Below are positions 2,251 through 9,731 of a DNA stretch of 9,731 nt, piece after piece. Position 1 is the first letter of the stretch. Each line of letters begins with the position of its first letter. The DNA is from a virus (lineage: Duplodnaviria > Heunggongvirae > Uroviricota > Caudoviricetes). Location of the stretch: IMG/VR virus record IMGVR_UViG_2713896772_000022, one strand, 5' to 3'. The position numbers and the translations under genes were made by a program. The notes below the pieces were generated by a model. It searched no databases and was not told the DNA's origin. It saw only the letters and a list, made by a program, of their open reading frames with translations.

Positions 2251-2789
2251 ATTCTATGTAAAGAATAAAAGATGTCTTATGTCTGTTTAATAATTAAACA
2301 TTCAACCTCCCTGCACTCAGTTGCATTTCAGGAAAATATTCATAAAAATGAATTTGTCTGATGTTCATTAAACACATCCGGATACATGCGGAAGTAAGAT
2401 GGTAATTTAATTTCTTTAATCATCGGATTTATTGATACATATGGTGAGCTGTTTATTTTTGGCCGTTTTGGCTCTTTTATTAATCAGGTGTTGTCTTAGT
2501 GCTTATGATGTAACGCCCTGAATGATATGGGCTGGTTCAGATTTGAGCTGTGATCCTGCCTAGTGTAATAGACTTTTTTATTATTGATGCTCCTTATTAT
2601 ATTCCATAAAGGAATTGTTTGTTTTTGTTCGTTTCATACGGTTTTTAGCTGTTTTATTTTTTGAGAAATCAACATTTCACACAAAATAAATAAAGCATGC
2701 GCGAGCCGCTTATATAAACATAATAAGGAGCTACCTGAATCCGCATGGAATTGCCCGGACTGTTGTAAACATATTAGAGAGGTAGCCAG

Positions 2790-3050
2790 ATGAATAGTAT
2801 TTCCGTTTCCACCCCGGCACCAGCTGCTCCGGTGCTCCCGGTTCCGGCTCAGCAGGAGCGCTTCATACGATTACCTGAAGTGATGCACCTTTGCGGGCTA
2901 TCCCGTTCAACCATCTACGACCTTATCAGCCGCGATGCCTTCCCGCAGCAGATATCCCTGGGTGGAAAAAATGTGGCCTGGGTACAGTCGGAGGTCAGTG
3001 CATGGATGGCGGCGCGAATTGCTGCCCGCGAGCAAGGAGGCCATGCGTGA
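2790..3050 (+). CDS. AlpA/Vis-family phage transcriptional regulator (86 aa)
   Basis: [47 protein letters not shown] has the AlpA-family helix-turn-helix signature (LSRSTIY...FP..LGGR.V.W...E). ATG at 2790 with GAGAGG ~8 nt upstream; stop TGA 3048-3050. Confidence 0.85.
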
Positions 3051-3085
3051 AACTTGCTTTGCAGTCTCATCTTCTTTTTTCTGGC

Positions 3086-3115
3086 TTGCGTCCTGATATC
3101 TTTTCCAGGTATAGT
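3086..3115 (+). promoter_or_regulatory. Candidate sigma70 promoter (TTGCGT-N18-TATAGT), possible PLE-like promoter
   Basis: -35-like TTGCGT at 3086-3091 and -10-like TATAGT at 3110-3115; lies upstream of the seqA-like element. Predicted by eye only. Confidence 0.3.
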
Positions 3116-3144
3116 TTTCCCGCTGCCGCAAAATCGGCTGCCGG

Positions 3145-3177
3145 GCGTAGGAACCCGAGTTACTTATTGGCGACACC
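3145..3177 (+). promoter_or_regulatory. seqA-like target sequence (GCGTAGGAAC ... TACTTATTGG)
   Basis: Blocks GTAGGAA and CTTATTGG are exactly complementary to TTCCTAC (3321-3327) and CCAATAAG (3306-3313) downstream; the same two blocks recur at 3352-3392. Confidence 0.4.
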
Positions 3178-3178
3178 A

Positions 3179-3200
3179 GACGCGCCGTGCGTCTTTTTTT
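3179..3200 (+). terminator. Hairpin GACGC-GCCGT-GCGTC followed by T7 (terminator-like; possible immunity terminator or RNA structure)
   Basis: 5-bp GC stem at 3179-3183 / 3189-3193 and a run of seven T at 3194-3200, immediately after the seqA-like element. Confidence 0.4.
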
Positions 3201-3239
3201 ACGTCGTTGCTCAGGCACACCCATTTTTCGGGCTGCGGT

Positions 3240-3340
3240 GCTTATACCTTAGCCCCTTTCAGATAATGGTGGTCCGGGCGGGGCAGCCTTCGGGCTGGCC
3301 GGTTTCCAATAAGGCCGGTATTCCTACCCCCGTTCGGGTC
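3240..3340 (+). ncRNA. Candidate CI-like immunity RNA containing a seqB-like segment (3303-3330); boundaries approximate
   Basis: GC-rich untranslated stretch with several short hairpins (e.g. GCC-TTCG-GGC; CCGG...CCGG) and a segment antisense to both seqA-like and seqC-like. No convincing ORF with a ribosome-binding site. Confidence 0.25.
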
Positions 3341-3351
3341 ACCACCCATGA

Positions 3352-3392
3352 GCGTAGGAACTCCGGTGGTGGCATTTACCGCTACTTATTGG
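3352..3392 (+). promoter_or_regulatory. seqC-like target sequence overlapping the RBS of the first small gene
   Basis: GCGTAGGAAC at 3352-3361 and TACTTATTGG at 3383-3392; the second block is fused to the GGAGG Shine-Dalgarno of the ATG at 3404. Confidence 0.4.
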
Positions 3393-3403
3393 AGGTTGCC
3401 CTT

Positions 3404-3595
3404 ATGGCTACGATCCTCGCCCCGTCACATCCTCAATTTATATTTGTTTTTGCCGCCGTTCGTCGTGCAGAACGTAAACCACGTATCAGTATGCTGCGTA
3501 TCATCGCCAGCAATGAGCATCATGCACGTCTTTCACTGGTCCATGAGTATGTGCTTTGTCTTGCTGCTCGCCTGCCTGTCCGGGAGGTGATCTAA
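3404..3595 (+). CDS. Small protein (63 aa), first gene of the replication operon; possibly Kil-like with a nested in-frame internal start
   Basis: ATG at 3404 with GGAGG 8 nt upstream; stop TAA 3593-3595 overlaps the next ATG (TAATG). Internal in-frame Met at codon 30. Functional assignment is by position only. Confidence 0.4.
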
Positions 3596-3819
3596 TGAAT
3601 CACGCCGCAATCTCTTATGACGATATTCTCCGCCTGAAGCATCTTCGTAACGTGGGAGAGTTTGTCACTGGAATGGCTGTTCTTCAGGATTGCTACGAAA
3701 AACCTGCCAGTGCTCAATGTGAACAACTGGTTTCCCTGATTTATCTGATGACAGAGCAGCTTGATGGCGTGGTACAGCGTTGCCAGGATGACCTCATGAA
3801 CATGGAGGTGGTGCAATGA
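3595..3819 (+). CDS. Hypothetical small protein (74 aa)
   Basis: ATG at 3595 preceded by GGGAGGTGA about 6 nt upstream; the track's upstream extension starts at a non-ATG codon. Stop TGA 3817-3819 overlaps the next ATG (ATGA). Confidence 0.55.
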
Positions 3820-4139
3820 AATCACGCACTCTTTCCCTTTCACTTCGGGTAGCGTTGTATCGCCGCGCGGTAGCCTGCGCCTGGTTGAGTGCCTGCTATC
3901 AGCAAAACCGCCATCTGCAGCTCACTCTGGATGAAATTGAAACCGCTATTGCCCGTGAGCTTGAAGGATTTTATCTGCGACAGCACGGGCAAACAAAAGG
4001 CATGGAAATCGCCTGCGCCCTGCTTTCAGACCTGATGGAATACGGCCCTCTAATGTCCTGTCCCGCACTCTCCCAGCTCGGAATAGCCGTAATGGATGAG
4101 TTATGCGTCCGTCACATCAAAAAGCCGGTTTTACACTGA
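3816..4139 (+). CDS. Hypothetical protein (107 aa), immediately upstream of the primase
   Basis: ATG at 3816 with GGAGGTGG upstream; translationally coupled to the previous gene; stop TGA 4137-4139 is 14 nt before the primase ATG. Confidence 0.6.
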
Positions 4140-4153
4140 GGGAGAACTGCGTC

Positions 4154-6487
4154 ATGTCAGGAATGAAAGTCAGTCAGGCCGTGAAGGCTGCCCGCGGTCA
4201 CTGGGCTCAGATTCTGCCAGCGCTGGGCGTGAATATATTGAAAAATCGCCATCAGCCTTGCCCGGTCTGTGGCGGTAAAGATCGTTTTCGCTTCGACGAT
4301 CAGGAAGGACGCGGAACATGGTTCTGCAATCAGTGCGGAGCCGGGGATGGTTTAGCGCTTGTCACCAGGGCACTGAATGTGGATATCAGTGAAGCAGCTG
4401 ACAGGATACATGGACTGACACATGATCTGTCTGTAGTTAATTCCGAGGTCAGGACGTTAACCGCCGATACCGATAGCGGGAAAGATGCAGCGGCAGCACT
4501 TGCCGCGCGACTGCTGCAAGCCTCGCGTGAATCTGCCGGAAACACTTATCTTACACATAAAGGTTTCCCGGAGCATATTTGCCATGAGCTGACTTCAGCT
4601 CATAAGGCCGGTGGTATGATGTTCCGCCCCGGTGATTTGATCGTCCCACTCTATAACGCTGACGGGGAGCTGGTGAATATTCAGCTCATCAGTGGCAATG
4701 GTAGCAAGTGTTTTCTTAAAGGAGGTCAGGTTAAGGAGGCCTATCATCTGATAGAAGGGGGCGGGAGTTCTGTAAGAAGGATTTGGATTGCGGAAGGTTA
4801 CGCCACGGCGCTTACCATTCATTATTTGACAGGAGAAGCCGTCATGGTGGCATTTTCGTCGGTCAACTTTCTTTCTCTGAGCAGCGTTGCCCATAATAAG
4901 TATCCGGGATATCAGTTAATTATTGCAGCGGACCGCGATCTGAATGGTTCAGGCCAGAACAGGGCTGAAACTGCTGCAAAAGCGAGTCAGTGTGACATTG
5001 TGCTGCCACCGGTTTTTGGTGACTGGAATGATGCGCTTACCCAATACGGAGAGGAATCCACCCGGAAGGCAATTCTTGAGGCTTTGAAGCCACATAACGC
5101 CAGTCCTTTCGACACAATGAGTGAAGCAGAATTCACAGCGATGAGTGTCAGCGAAAAAGCTCAGAGGGTTCGGGAGCATTACAGGGATGCACTGGCGGTT
5201 GATCCGAACGGGCAGCTTTTATCCCGCTACGAGTCTGGAGCGTGGAAAGTTATTTCTCAGTCAGATTTTGCCCGAGATGTCGCAGCCCTTTTCCAGCGCC
5301 TCGGGGCACCGTTTTCCTCAGGAAAAATTGCCTCACTGGTGGAAACATTAAAGTTAATTGTTCCGCAGCAGCAAAATCCGTCACGTCATCTGATTGGTTT
5401 TCGTAATGGCGTTCTCGATACGCGAACAGGGCTTTTTAGTCCGCACTGTAAAGAGAACTGGCTGCGTACCCTGTGTGAAGTCGATTTCACGCCACCGGTA
5501 AAGGGGGAAACGCTTGAAACTCATGCCCCGGCATTCTGGCGTTGGCTGGACCGGGCCGCCGGACACAAGCCAGCAAAACGCGACATTATTCTTGCAGCGT
5601 TATTTATGGTGCTGGCGAACCGCTATGACTGGCAGCTCTTTCTGGAAGTGACTGGCCCTGGTGGAAGTGGCAAAAGTATTCTGGCTGAAATTGCGACCAT
5701 GCTTGCTGGAGAGGATAACGCCACCTCTGCGACCATTGAAACGCTGGAGTCCTCGCGAGAACGTGCGGCTCTGATAGGTTTTTCTCTTATTCGCCTGCCT
5801 GATCAGGAGAAGTGGAGCGGCGACGGCGCCGGGCTTAAGGCTATAACTGGTGGCGATGCAGTATCTGTGGACCCCAAATATCAGAATGCTTATTCAACAC
5901 ATATTCCGGCGGTTATCTTGGCCGTAAATAATAATCCTATGCGCTTCACTGATCGCAGTGGTGGTGTGTCCCGCAGGAGAGTTATTCTGCATTTTCCTGA
6001 GCAGATAGCACCGGAAGAACGCGATCCGCAGTTGAAAGATAAAATTGCACGAGAACTGGCTGTGATTGTTCGTCAGCTCATGCAGCGTTTCAGCGATCCG
6101 ATGAGCGCCAGAACATTGCTTCAGTCGCAGCAGAATTCTGATGAGGCTCTCACCATCAAGCGTGATGCTGATCCAGCATTTGATTTTTGTGGCTACCTTG
6201 AGGCATTACCTGACACCAACGGTATGTTTATGGGGAACGCCAATATTGTCCCACGCCAGCCACGTACATACCTTTACCATGCCTACCTCGTATACATGGA
6301 GGCTAATGGCTATAAAAACACCCTGAGTCTTACGATGTTTGGCAAAGGGTTGCCAGTCATGCTGAAGGAGTACGGGCTACATTATGAGAAACGGCGAACT
6401 AATCAGGGAATGCAAACTAACCTCACTTTGAAAGAGGAGAGTAATGCAGACTGGCTGCCCAAGTGTGATGAGCCAATATTAAAATAA
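4154..6487 (+). CDS. alpha: P4 alpha-type bifunctional DNA primase/helicase (777 aa)
   Basis: N-terminal zinc ribbon CPVCGGKDRFRFDD...CNQCG; Toprim-like IAEGYATALT and AADRD; Walker A VTGPGGSGKS of a D5/SF3-type helicase. ATG at 4154 has GAGGGAG 9 nt upstream and gives 777 aa, the length I recall for P4 alpha; the track start at 4103 is an alternative. Confidence 0.92.
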   Translation: MSGMKVSQAVKAARGHWAQILPALGVNILKNRHQPCPVCGGKDRFRFDDQEGRGTWFCNQCGAGDGLALVTRALNVDISEAADRIHGLTHDLSVVNSEVRTLTADTDSGKDAAAALAARLLQASRESAGNTYLTHKGFPEHICHELTSAHKAGGMMFRPGDLIVPLYNADGELVNIQLISGNGSKCFLKGGQVKEAYHLIEGGGSSVRRIWIAEGYATALTIHYLTGEAVMVAFSSVNFLSLSSVAHNKYPGYQLIIAADRDLNGSGQNRAETAAKASQCDIVLPPVFGDWNDALTQYGEESTRKAILEALKPHNASPFDTMSEAEFTAMSVSEKAQRVREHYRDALAVDPNGQLLSRYESGAWKVISQSDFARDVAALFQRLGAPFSSGKIASLVETLKLIVPQQQNPSRHLIGFRNGVLDTRTGLFSPHCKENWLRTLCEVDFTPPVKGETLETHAPAFWRWLDRAAGHKPAKRDIILAALFMVLANRYDWQLFLEVTGPGGSGKSILAEIATMLAGEDNATSATIETLESSRERAALIGFSLIRLPDQEKWSGDGAGLKAITGGDAVSVDPKYQNAYSTHIPAVILAVNNNPMRFTDRSGGVSRRRVILHFPEQIAPEERDPQLKDKIARELAVIVRQLMQRFSDPMSARTLLQSQQNSDEALTIKRDADPAFDFCGYLEALPDTNGMFMGNANIVPRQPRTYLYHAYLVYMEANGYKNTLSLTMFGKGLPVMLKEYGLHYEKRRTNQGMQTNLTLKEESNADWLPKCDEPILK

Positions 6488-7392: not shown

Positions 7393-8217
7393 ATGATAAA
7401 GCCATTTTCTGTGAGGTATGGTCATGTTGACGTTAGAGAGCATGTCCAGCTGAATGATCTTAATTCTGATACACGCATGGCATTGTGGAATTGCTTATAT
7501 CTTTTCCTTTGGACTAACAATCGTCAAACTGCTACAGCAACAAAATGTGCGCAGTCTGTGTGGATATATTATCTAAATCAACCTGCGGATAATATTCCTC
7601 GTTATGAAAGTGGATACAAAAGTGATAAGACGTTGCTGACTGCTATCCGAGATTATATATATGGGGAAGCATGGTATTTGGTATATGATTTAATTGAGTT
7701 CATCATTGAGAGAACTAATTCATATATTAATCTATCGAAGCATCTCAATTCCATCTTTAAAAAGCATGGCGTTGGTTATACCATAATAAATGGTTGTATT
7801 ACTCCTATTTCAAATGATAACGAAATTGAAAGTGTTCAGAACGCAGTTGATAATGGCACTGATTCATCGCGTAGCCATTTCGAAAGGGCGTTACAACTAA
7901 TGACGGATAGAGAGCAGCCAGACTACAGAAACTCGATTAAAGAGTCTATCTCTGCAATTGAATCTTTATGCAGGAAAATCACGGGCAATGATAAAGGAAC
8001 CTTGGGGGCTTGTCTTAAAGCTATAGAGGAAAAAGGATATATACACTCTGCAATGAAAGGCGCTTTTAGTCAGCTCTATGGTTATACAAGTGATCAGGGT
8101 GGAATACGTCATGCGCTAACAGAAGAAGATGTAAATCCTACCTTAGCTGAAGCTAAATTTATGTTAGTCACTTGCAGTGCGTTCAGTAATTATCTGTTGT
8201 CAAAAATAAGTGATTAA
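7393..8217 (+). CDS. Hypothetical protein (274 aa), low-GC cargo; function unknown
   Basis: ATG at 7393 with GGGGAAG upstream; long uninterrupted ORF with AT-rich codon usage unlike the satellite core; stop TAA 8215-8217 followed by a strong hairpin. No motif I can assign with confidence. Confidence 0.75.
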   Translation: MIKPFSVRYGHVDVREHVQLNDLNSDTRMALWNCLYLFLWTNNRQTATATKCAQSVWIYYLNQPADNIPRYESGYKSDKTLLTAIRDYIYGEAWYLVYDLIEFIIERTNSYINLSKHLNSIFKKHGVGYTIINGCITPISNDNEIESVQNAVDNGTDSSRSHFERALQLMTDREQPDYRNSIKESISAIESLCRKITGNDKGTLGACLKAIEEKGYIHSAMKGAFSQLYGYTSDQGGIRHALTEEDVNPTLAEAKFMLVTCSAFSNYLLSKISD

Positions 8218-8265: not shown

Positions 8266-8838
8266 TTATTCACCAGACTCTAATCTTTTTTCTCTTTTCT
8301 CATCTCTCCTTTTTATTGCCAAATCGTGTTGCTCTTGCAGATACGTGCGTTCTTCGTTTCTATCGCTTGAAGTATATACGTCTGCTTTTACTTTTTTAGC
8401 TCCTTGTGCAATAGGTTTCCAATCCTCTCTTATACCTTTAATTTGTTCTGCAATTTGCGTCAATGGGCTTCTCGCTCCTAGATAACTTATTCCTTCAAAT
8501 GTCGCCATGTCATACACATATTCATTTGTTTCTCTATCGTTTGATTTAGGTTTGCTTGCCCAGCTTATATTAATATTATAAATTTGATCTTTGATTTGTT
8601 CATACTTACAGAGATTGCTGGTAAGTGATTGCCCATTTTTTAACACGCTTACCTTACTAAACGGAATCTCACTTTTTTCTCTATGCTCCGCATTTACTAG
8701 TGGAGGATCAAACACAACCTCAACATTATAGGCAGGTGCGTTCCCTGTATTAGCAATGTTAATATCAAAGTAAAAAGCGGCCCAAGGGTTTGGCTCAAGT
8801 GTTACAACTATATGGGGTTGAGCTGATGCGTCAACCAT
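8266..8838 (-). CDS. Hypothetical protein (~190 aa), low-GC cargo; 5' end abuts the IS911 terminus
   Basis: The track ORF (208 aa) starts at GTG 8892, inside the IS-end sequence. The first ATG is at 8838 (MVDASAQPHIVV...) with only a weak Shine-Dalgarno. N-terminal half looks beta-rich, C-terminal tail highly charged (KRRDEKREKRLE). Confidence 0.6.
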   Translation of the reverse strand: MVDASAQPHIVVTLEPNPWAAFYFDINIANTGNAPAYNVEVVFDPPLVNAEHREKSEIPFSKVSVLKNGQSLTSNLCKYEQIKDQIYNINISWASKPKSNDRETNEYVYDMATFEGISYLGARSPLTQIAEQIKGIREDWKPIAQGAKKVKADVYTSSDRNEERTYLQEQHDLAIKRRDEKREKRLESGE

Positions 8839-8938
8839 TCTTTTTGTCTCGTCTGCTCTGAAGTGGTGAAGTGGTTTACTGAATTTGGCCACCTGAACAG
8901 AGGTGATATGCTCACCTCAGAACAACACAGGTGCTCCA

Positions 8939-9731
<793 letters not shown>

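Follow-up and report, generated by a model that had tools for sequence, protein, structure and literature searches.

Overexpression of the Kil protein of P4 or of the Icd protein of P1 is toxic or blocks cell division, and the Cnr protein of P4 binds the alpha protein and limits replication. The genes for Kil, Cnr and alpha belong to the left operon of P4, for which an arrangement of eta, kil, CI and seqA like that in the locus described here is set out in PMC10111431. In the part of that article that summarizes Forti et al. (1999), P4 kil is described as lying within the long eta open reading frame (ORF), as a short gene at its 3' end. The control of transcription termination by CI, seqA and seqC is summarized in PMC4825925, and the IsrK RNA is identified as a structural homologue of the P4 SeqA RNA (PMC4825925). 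Among P4-like elements, the cnr family is found directly upstream of alpha in 90% of cases (PMC8628076), and 61% of P4-like satellites carry a gene of ~75 aa that is absent from P4 and has no known function (Moura de Sousa and Rocha, 2021, PMC8628076). This gene is located beside the cnr family, between alpha and the 'Ash' gene, the latter being called epsilon in the same study (PMC8628076).

The window analyzed here, a stretch of 9,731 nt, is 100% identical to sequence of E. coli E2865, in which the same coding sequences are called by RefSeq. It very probably carries the left, or early, operon of a P4-like phage satellite that resides in an E. coli chromosome, consisting of alpA/vis, eta with a nested kil, orf74, cnr and alpha, with kil under the control of RNA and with Met30 of Kil being a residue and not a start (Table 1). 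The genes psu, sid, delta, alpA, 'ash' (PF10554) and alpha, which make up the P4-like satellite core set of Moura de Sousa and Rocha, are all co-localized. In E2865, the annotation shows no integrase in the 9 kb to either side of the element, which is flanked by copies of IS66 and IS3; the operon may no longer be working in a satellite life cycle. The operon is of the ordinary kind, and its genes are already annotated in the E2865 RefSeq record. The chief value of the analysis is a correct annotation of the region as the early operon of a P4-like satellite under RNA-based immunity, together with the correction of the idea that kil contains an internal start.

Table 1. Genes, RNA elements and control sites of the left operon, with positions numbered from the first nucleotide of the window
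Feature	Position	Strand	Basis or remarks
alpA/vis-like HTH regulator, 86 aa	2790..3050	+	Pfam Phage_AlpA, E = 4.2e-20; RefSeq CDS in E2865
Eta-like long ORF, 182 aa; GTG start, SD AAGGAGG 3034-3040	3047..3595	+	Exact RefSeq CDS, WP_000761643.1
Putative PLE-like constitutive promoter; -35 TTGCGT 3086-3091, 18-nt spacer, -10 TATAGT 3110-3115	3086..3115	+	Inference only
seqA/IsrK-like RNA with intrinsic terminator (stem 3178-3194 and T-run)	3122..3199	+	Rfam isrK, 72.1 bits (gathering score 50); terminator scan
CI/C4-type immunity antisense RNA; specificity loop (seqB) 3300-3313	3262..3349	+	Rfam C4 RF01695
seqC target, 14 nt complementary to the CI loop; covers the kil SD (GGAGG 3392-3396)	3385..3398	+	Computed duplex
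kil (ORF1), 63 aa	3404..3595	+	Icd-like host-killing/cell-division-inhibitor homologue; first gene translated from the PLE-type transcript
orf74 (ORF2), 74 aa; predicted two-helix hairpin	3595..3819	+	phrog_10110, E = 8.5e-41 (unknown function)
cnr homologue (ORF3), 107 aa; DUF5375 (PF17345)	3816..4139	+	Pfam, 162.9 bits (gathering score 30)
alpha primase-helicase, 777 aa; last gene of the operon, SD GGGAG	4154..6487	+	Pfam Zn_Ribbon_Prim, Toprim_3, D5_N and Pox_D5

The first-pass annotation had described three small, translationally coupled genes ahead of the primase, each with a strong Shine-Dalgarno (SD) sequence and with overlapping or abutting stop and start codons, and its ORFs, junctions and strong SDs are all borne out. 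The stop of ORF1 and the start of ORF2 have one base in common (TAATG), the start of ORF3 overlaps the stop of ORF2 by 4 nt (ATGA), and the ATG of the alpha primase is located 14 nt past the stop of ORF3. Predicted pairing with the anti-SD sequence amounts to -10.5, -14.1 and -13.8 kcal/mol for ORF1, ORF2 and ORF3, which ranks their starts in the top 2.1, 0.3 and 0.5%, respectively, of all 373 ATGs of the window. Eight related loci (seven intact and one decayed by a frameshift, counted as five genera) retain the gene order AlpA-Eta/Kil-ORF2-Cnr-alpha as well as the overlaps and the strong SDs; they come from E. coli, Enterobacter, Kluyvera, Scandinavium, Rosenbergiella and 'Pseudomonas' flectens. 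All three ORFs are under purifying selection, with pN well below pS and with dN/dS values of 0.07-0.36 across kil, orf74 and cnr. The compact operon that had been proposed to include the primase is a P4-type left (early) operon running into alpha. The alignment with P4 that had been suggested as a check gives 71% identity for Kil and 70% for ORF106/Cnr, a collinear eta and no alignment for epsilon.

The identity of the first gene is supported by both sequence and position. ORF1 aligns over its full length with the 65-aa P4 Kil, which has been defined experimentally (44 of 62 residues identical, E = 6e-30), and the NCBIfam model NF033153 (Icd-like) matches residues 12-59 with 70.4 bits against a cutoff of 25; dN/dS for kil is 0.2-0.3. 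As expected of a member of the Icd-like/Kil family, kil follows a C4/CI RNA as its first downstream ORF, the RNA loop being complementary to the ribosome-binding site of kil, and makes up the 3' end of a longer eta ORF in the same frame that is coupled to alpA/vis. By analogy with P4 Kil and P1 Icd, the protein encoded here is probably an Icd-like small protein that would be toxic or division-blocking when overexpressed.

Two other ways of reading the kil region have to be weighed against this assignment. The 80-aa frame at 3348-3590, which had been put forward as possibly the real gene, is open and ATG-initiated in the window; it matches no family, has a weak SD (-3.7 kcal/mol), lacks its ATG at that place in several loci and is broken by stops in L003, L009 and L010, while the ORF1 frame shows purifying selection and homology to P4 Kil. 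ORF1 is the gene, and the chance that the 80-aa frame is real and ORF1 spurious is negligible. A genuine nested gene that begins at Met30 (ATG 3491-3493) and encodes a 34-aa product is also very improbable. The in-frame Met at codon 30 does exist, as the first-pass annotation had pointed out, and is invariant in all 11 loci compared, P4 among them, but the role of a nested start that had been assigned to it does not hold: the predicted SD pairing ahead of Met30 is 0 kcal/mol in all but one of the 11 loci, the exception having -1.9 kcal/mol, whereas Met1 scores from -6.4 to -11.4 kcal/mol. Met30 is rejected as a start on account of this wanting SD, and its location within residues 12-59, the conserved Icd-like domain, means that protein function accounts for its conservation. 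Judged from the sequences compared, it behaves as a conserved residue of that domain. Moreover, the nested pair documented for P4 is kil within eta, not a shorter product within kil.

The P4-like nesting that had been proposed is real but had been misplaced: in P4 it is the short kil that lies within the long eta, and the counterpart in the window is the GTG-initiated ORF at 3047-3595, which begins upstream of the three-gene block. In this true nested pair, kil forms the 3' end of the Eta-like ORF and the RNA genes lie inside it. The TGA stop of alpA (3048-3050) and the GTG with which the Eta-like ORF begins overlap (GTGA). The ORF is collinear with the 197-199-aa eta ORF of P4, and in the P4 sequence the 65-aa Kil lies inside an ORF of 199, 198 or 197 aa with three consecutive ATGs. 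Nine of 10 related loci keep the Eta frame open, residues 22-131 give a match to Pfam Phage_ASH (E = 4.7e-33), and pN is approximately equal to pS over the N-terminal 119 codons. The 'Ash' Pfam family (PF10554), which is used in the literature as a marker of epsilon, corresponds here to the RNA-gene-bearing part of eta, a part without selection at the amino-acid level. This correspondence affects the counting of P4-like core genes and of their 'pseudogenes'.

The RNA elements inside the Eta-like ORF match those of P4-type immunity. The putative PLE-like promoter is proposed on the basis of conservation with P4, with which its blocks are conserved in the alignment; its predicted transcript start is at ~3122, where the IsrK/seqA RNA model begins, and a strict sigma-70 consensus scan found no promoter, the PLE-like site not passing. 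The seqA/IsrK-like RNA contains a seqA target, CTTATTGG at 3163-3170, that is complementary to the CI loop, and a match to Rfam c4-a1b1 at 3109-3161 reaches 43.8 bits, slightly under the gathering score. The match to C4 (RF01695) is full-length, with 83.4 bits against a gathering score of 45 (E = 1e-15), and the CI/C4 RNA is also present in P4 and in all nine related loci. The CI loop and seqC are predicted to form a duplex of 14 bp, including 10 Watson-Crick pairs, with an energy of -14.9 kcal/mol. The CI loop, seqA and seqC covary, giving five specificity types among nine loci in which each loop fits its own seqA and seqC.

The computed complementarity and covariation suggest that, in an immune prophage, CI RNA would bind transcripts from the constitutive internal promoter. 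By extension from P4 and P1, kil on the bound transcripts would remain untranslated and the RNA would be terminated within or near kil, a step that is Rho-dependent in P4, and it is proposed that orf74, cnr and alpha consequently stay off in the immune state. The 5' half of kil has only a modest excess of C over G, and a Rho-dependent terminator is not identifiable from its sequence. Escape from immunity would involve transcription from the upstream regulated promoter, with ribosomes moving from alpA to eta via the GTGA overlap, and translation through the eta/kil region would block termination. Ribosomes would then proceed from kil to orf74 and cnr over the stop-start overlaps, aided by very strong SDs, and this coupled translation would coordinate the expression of kil, orf74 and cnr with that of alpha.

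The third gene of the block and the primase have clear counterparts in P4. ORF3 and P4 ORF106, the latter being presumably Cnr, are 70% identical (E = 9e-52), and in the window, in P4 and in eight other loci the ORF3 stop (4139 in the window) is followed in the same arrangement by the ATG of alpha. The protein identical to ORF3 carries the submitter's name 'Cnr-like protein' in UniRef, P4 ORF106 is still 'uncharacterised' in UniProt, and a literature search for DUF5375 found nothing. The equation of ORF106 with cnr rests on its position, the statement in PMC8628076 and the submitter's 'Cnr-like' name. By analogy with P4, ORF3 is probably a copy-number or replication regulator that acts with alpha, and both the binding and the limitation of copy number would carry over from P4. 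The alpha protein matches phrog_2249 (E = 2.7e-221), and its start at 4154 is identical in RefSeq. A start at ATG 4103, overlapping cnr, was considered and rejected: its SD is weak, and RefSeq and the relatives use 4154. Of the helper-derepression and host-killing functions that had been expected of the block from the P4 map, host killing is represented by ORF1, a homologue of Kil; no epsilon is present, and Cnr would act on the satellite's own replication, not on the helper or the host.

The remaining gene, orf74, is labeled as a hypothetical protein in all sources. It has no match in Pfam or NCBIfam, a sequence-profile search of the PDB returned nothing, and PADLOC gives no match that would make it a defence gene. 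It belongs to a small enterobacterial family, with only 22 representative clusters among 1.84 billion proteins, and one subtype alone is present in 549 of 5,426 complete E. coli genomes. Outside satellites, no copy is found in 50,697 phage records, and of four 'plasmid' matches three are in megabase-sized records that are probably mislabeled chromosomes. In size, position and distribution orf74 agrees with the 75-aa gene of PMC8628076 and with phrog_10110, and it appears to be of the same family; a literature search for a characterized role of the 75-aa gene found nothing. Comparison with the related locus L003 gives pN of 0.09 and pS of 0.78, and amino-acid identity is 85% where the adjoining genes show 63-72%. 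Two AF2 models predict a two-helix hairpin, with pLDDT of 72 and then 81 and with helices at 8-33 and 39-73 in the latter, and Foldseek searches of the models against viral structures and the PDB found generic hairpins only (E > 0.6). The product of orf74 is a conserved protein, predicted to be a helical hairpin, that most likely acts by binding a partner protein.

The identity of this partner is where the readings of orf74 diverge. The gene occupies the slot between kil and cnr in which P4 has epsilon and orf151; none of the eight orf74 loci contains epsilon or orf151, and the sole P4-type locus examined has both and lacks orf74. A homologue of epsilon it is not: there is no BLASTP alignment, the model PF25738 recovers P4 epsilon (E = 9e-51) but neither ORF2 nor its relatives, and an hhalign comparison of a 17-sequence ORF2 profile with a 17-sequence epsilon profile gives a probability of 0.3%. 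Given the lack of an epsilon homologue, the 'helper derepression' of the earlier suggestion is, for ORF2, a positional guess. A helper-directed role is still the leading guess, held with low confidence, because orf74 replaces epsilon and orf151. In its specific form, orf74 would be a non-homologous substitute for epsilon, a small anti-repressor that derepresses the helper prophage by binding the immunity repressor made by the P2-like helper of this satellite. This is a tentative and rather unlikely reading, which draws on the shared slot, the absence of epsilon and orf151 from the orf74 loci and of orf74 from the P4-type locus examined, the strong constraint, a predicted small helical hairpin that suits protein binding, and the reported presence of the family in 61% of P4-like elements (PMC8628076). 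It must be set against the absence of sequence or profile similarity to epsilon, structural matches that are uninformative, and an identity of 85% that, next to the 63-72% of its neighbors, suits a conserved target better than fast-evolving helper repressors. Strong conservation, which suggests a conserved partner, is also in keeping with a place of orf74 in a replication-control module, where, as a small adaptor, it would target Cnr, alpha or both, or else a host factor of replication or division, and not the helper. Direct coupling to cnr with an overlap of 1-4 nt and a very strong SD in all loci, and constant co-occurrence with cnr and alpha in the loci examined, also favor this placement, but P4 replicates and controls its copy number without orf74, which has no homology to known replication regulators, and the proposal is unlikely as well. 

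The broadest version of the anti-repressor reading is that orf74 represents the majority helper-takeover solution of P4-like satellites, a hairpin anti-repressor unrelated to epsilon that inactivates the repressor of helpers beyond the reach of epsilon. Doubtful as this is, it would, if true, explain the mobilization of elements that have no true epsilon gene (PF25738), and it would correct the identification of epsilon in the literature with 'ash' (PF10554), which in this window is largely a translated RNA region. Once found, the target of orf74 would show how satellites without a true epsilon handle their helpers.

In comparison with known systems, the locus is most readily described by reference to the P4 left operon (PLE/PLL - eta/kil - CI RNA - epsilon - orf151 - cnr - alpha), with which it shares gene order and strand logic. 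In both, alpA/vis is coupled to a long eta that holds seqA, CI RNA and seqC and whose 3' end is Kil (71%), Cnr/ORF106 (70%) is directly upstream of alpha, and the CI loop is complementary to the kil SD. The two differ in that P4 epsilon (PF25738) and orf151 are missing from the window, where an unrelated 74-aa gene is found instead, and in the specificity of immunity, the loop being UCCAAUAAG in the window and UCCUGUGAA in P4, with both targets changed to match. Furthermore, eta has a GTG start and 182 codons in the window but three ATGs and 197-199 codons in P4, and the element in the window is flanked by IS copies and has no integrase nearby. The immI region of P1/P7 (c4 antisense RNA - icd - ant) and the secondary immunity regions of N15, PY54 and phiKO2 resemble the window in that a C4-family antisense RNA, processed from the same transcript, base-pairs at the ribosome-binding site of a small Icd-like ORF farther downstream, to which the genes that follow are translationally coupled. 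The downstream cargo is an antirepressor (ant) in the P1/P7-type regions, whereas in the window it consists of orf74, cnr and alpha, called replication genes, and Kil of the window is only 41-50% identical to the Icd-like proteins of N15, phiKO2 and PY54. The isrK - orf45 - anrP region of Salmonella Gifsy-1 likewise places an IsrK-type leader with its own terminator ahead of a small RNA, produced by processing, and of a small ORF that, when translated, drives the gene coupled to it downstream. In Gifsy-1, however, the short IsrK acts in trans as an activator of translation and the coupled gene encodes an antirepressor, whereas the architecture of the window follows the repressive CI/seqA/seqC logic of P4.

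The three small genes upstream of the primase form a cluster of the P4 left-operon type. The ORFs of 63 (kil), 74 (orf74) and 107 (cnr homologue) amino acids reported by the first-pass annotation all lie at its stated coordinates, and its description of strong Shine-Dalgarno (SD) sequences and overlapping junctions is borne out. The kil and orf74 genes overlap by 1 nt (TAATG), orf74 and cnr overlap by 4 nt (ATGA), and 14 nt separate the cnr stop from the primase ATG. At the three starts, anti-SD pairing is predicted at -10.5, -14.1 and -13.8 kcal/mol, respectively, which places them among the best 2.1%, 0.3% and 0.5% of the window's 373 ATGs. Eight related loci were compared, from Escherichia coli (two lineages, ~75-79% DNA identity), Enterobacter, Kluyvera, Scandinavium, Rosenbergiella (two) and 'Pseudomonas' flectens. 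The order AlpA-Eta/Kil-ORF2-Cnr-alpha is kept in all eight, and the 1-4-nt overlaps and strong SDs are retained in the seven intact loci; the Kluyvera locus has decayed by frameshift. All three genes are under purifying selection, with pN and pS values against related locus L003 of 0.19 and 0.50 (kil), 0.09 and 0.78 (orf74) and 0.20 and 0.71 (cnr). When L003 is compared with a further locus, L008, only synonymous changes are seen in orf74 (pS 0.13).

Features of the window, with RefSeq CDS names from the E. coli E2865 chromosome
Feature	Position	Strand	Annotation
ogr/delta-like zinc-finger ORF, 124 aa	298-672	-	From mechanical ORF list; 100-nt overlap with psu
psu		-	
sid-like ORF, 261 aa	1123-1908	-	Weak Pfam Psu match, E 2.9e-07
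alpA	2790-3050	+	
Eta-like ORF, 182 aa	3047-3595	+	RefSeq: 'host cell division inhibitor Icd-like protein'
c4-a1b1 target element	3109-3161		Rfam, 43.8 bits, just under gathering score; within Eta-like ORF
IsrK-type RNA	3122-3199		Rfam, 72.1 bits; intrinsic terminator at its end; within Eta-like ORF
C4 antisense RNA	3262-3349		Rfam, 83.4 bits; within Eta-like ORF
kil (ORF1)	3404-3595	+	
orf74 (ORF2)	3595-3819	+	RefSeq: hypothetical protein
cnr homologue (ORF3)	3816-4139	+	RefSeq: DUF5375 family protein
P4-type primase-helicase (alpha), 777 aa	4154-6487	+	RefSeq: primase
274-aa gene	7393-8217	+	Downstream of primase; PADLOC candidate defence family PDC-S32, E 5.6e-104
208-aa gene	8266-8892	-	No annotated function; adjoins 274-aa gene
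IS3-family transposase	8903-9731		Frameshifted in RefSeq; 3' of cargo genes

ORF1 scores 70.4 bits (cutoff 25) with the NCBIfam family 'host cell division inhibitor Icd-like protein' and aligns over its whole length, at 71% identity, with the last 65 codons of a P4 ORF once annotated 'cI/ash'. Those C-terminal codons are P4 Kil (MATTLTPSHPEF...VEVSRA), so that the suspected kinship with kil holds; weaker relatives are the Icd-like/secondary-immunity ORFs of N15, phiKO2 and PY54. ORF3 matches Pfam DUF5375 (162.9 bits), and a protein identical to it is named 'Cnr-like protein' in UniRef. The cnr named for comparison is likewise found, as ORF3 shares 70% identity with P4 ORF106, whose gene immediately precedes alpha. 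P4 cnr is a member of a family that 90% of P4-like elements encode between 'epsilon' and alpha (PMC8628076). Work on P4 (Terzano 1994, Ziegelin 1997) also agrees with ORF106 being cnr.

The nested kil/eta-like arrangement proposed for the first gene exists one level up, with kil at the 3' end of an Eta-like ORF; the in-frame Met at codon 30 is not supported as a start. Met30 is invariant in 11 of 11 loci, yet the 20 nt before it give no anti-SD pairing (0 kcal/mol) in ten loci and only -1.9 kcal/mol in the other, compared with -6.4 to -11.4 kcal/mol at Met1. Because it also lies within the Icd-like domain, Met30 is best read as a conserved residue. An 80-aa frame (3348-3590), considered earlier as possibly the real gene, has no family match and a weak SD, and is broken by stop codons in three relatives. 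In P4, the kil frame extends without a stop as far as three successive ATGs that overlap the orf88/vis stop, giving 199, 198 or 197 codons, and Kil is a truncated form of Eta (PMC10111431, citing Forti et al. 1999). In the window, the corresponding frame runs from a GTG sharing bases with the alpA TGA (GTGA), and AAGGAGG stands before this GTG (predicted pairing -11.4 kcal/mol). The resulting ORF matches Pfam Phage_ASH at residues 22-131 and stays uninterrupted in nine of ten related loci, with in-frame indels. Its N-terminal part (3047-3403) has pN close to pS, at ratios of roughly 0.7-1.3 overall and 0.8-1.7 for codons outside both RNA genes, versus 0.07-0.36 for kil, orf74 and cnr. Given this near-neutral ratio in an open frame, the 'Ash' family looks to be largely translated seqA/IsrK-like and CI/C4 RNA genes, in keeping with a role for translation itself rather than for the peptide. 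In several papers 'ash'/PF10554 serves as a marker for epsilon; the true epsilon family is PF25738, which is absent here.

The IsrK-type and C4 RNAs also occur in P4 and all related loci. Structurally, IsrK is homologous to P4 SeqA RNA, and in P4 the CI RNA is processed from the leader and pairs with its upstream (seqA) and downstream (seqC) targets, leading to premature termination (PMC4825925). The window's C4 loop (3300-3313) is predicted to form a 14-bp duplex with 3385-3398 that covers the kil SD, and has a perfect 8-bp match to 3163-3170 of the IsrK-like RNA. Five loop sequence types occur over nine loci (the window, L001, L003-L005 and L008-L011) and covary with both targets. Compensation in both targets is exact in the clearest cases: the window (UCCAAUAAG with target CUUAUUGG), P4 (UCCUGUGAA with UUCACAGG) and the P4-type prophage L004 (UCCUUGAAG with CUUCAAGG). 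On comparative grounds, this covariation strongly supports a functional pairing that sets immunity specificity, and the five types imply several specificities among P4-like satellites. The window's loop type is common to L003 and L005, unlike that of P4. By analogy with P4 and P1, blocked kil translation would lead to Rho-dependent termination, and eta translation on transcripts from an upstream promoter would override it. C exceeds G (0.28 versus 0.17-0.18) in the 5' half of kil (3376-3505), and kil has lower synonymous divergence than adjacent orf74 for the same locus pair; these two weak observations fit a rut element or Rho-dependent (timm-like) terminator inside kil that may constrain its sequence.

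The sole family match of orf74 is phrog_10110 (function unknown), with none in Pfam, NCBIfam or PADLOC, and every source checked names it a hypothetical protein. When 1.84 billion representatives were searched exhaustively with a profile, only 22 clusters emerged, mostly of proteins of 72-86 aa. The proposal that the genes include a helper-derepression homologue fails for orf74, which gives no BLASTP alignment with P4 epsilon; PF25738 ('Derepression protein') matches epsilon at 9e-51 and neither ORF2 nor its relatives, and hhalign of the ORF2 profile against the epsilon profile yields 0.3% probability. The AF2 model (17-sequence alignment, pLDDT 81) pairs two helices, 8-33 and 39-73, in an antiparallel hairpin, for which fold searches return generic hairpins only. 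By size, position and distribution, ORF2 fits a 75-aa family of unknown function, absent from P4 and present in 61% of P4-like elements (PMC8628076). In L004, epsilon and orf151 fill the ORF2 slot; this module occurs in 988 of 5,426 complete E. coli genomes and the window's ORF2 subtype in 549. Of two candidate roles, action as a helper-directed anti-repressor is doubtful, and a part in the replication module is just as improbable.

The delta-like, psu and sid-like genes, alpA, the small ORFs and the P4-type primase together make the predicted gene set that of a P4-like satellite. Positions 2780-4170 are 100% identical to the chromosome of E2865 and of other strains, and the E2865 RefSeq CDSs for orf74, cnr and the primase coincide to the base with the coordinates given here. 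The satellite appears degraded, truncated or immobilised, because the E2865 RefSeq annotation has no integrase for 9 kb to its left or right and it is bordered by IS66 and IS3 copies; the IS66-family elements lie just past delta. The 274-aa and 208-aa genes are probably cargo in a defence hotspot; RefSeq calls the former an AbiJ-NTD4 domain protein. The ogr/delta-like gene in RefSeq is a shorter, 90-aa CDS abutting psu, which makes translation of the extra N-terminal stretch of the 124-aa ORF unlikely. The sid-like ORF is labelled 'Psu-like' in PHROGs, and RefSeq names one relative 'septation initiation protein'; the mixed labels are due to sid/psu paralogy and inconsistent naming.

The first-pass observation is thus largely correct as to ORFs, junctions and SDs, and its interpretation stands for Kil, cnr and the P4-like operon but not for the internal start or the helper-derepression homologue. 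The C4-icd logic of the cluster is also known from P1, N15 and Gifsy-1. Earlier work has reported the orf74-type variant at the family level, and RefSeq already annotates it; compared with P4, the window differs in immunity specificity and carries orf74, whereas P4 has epsilon and orf151 instead.
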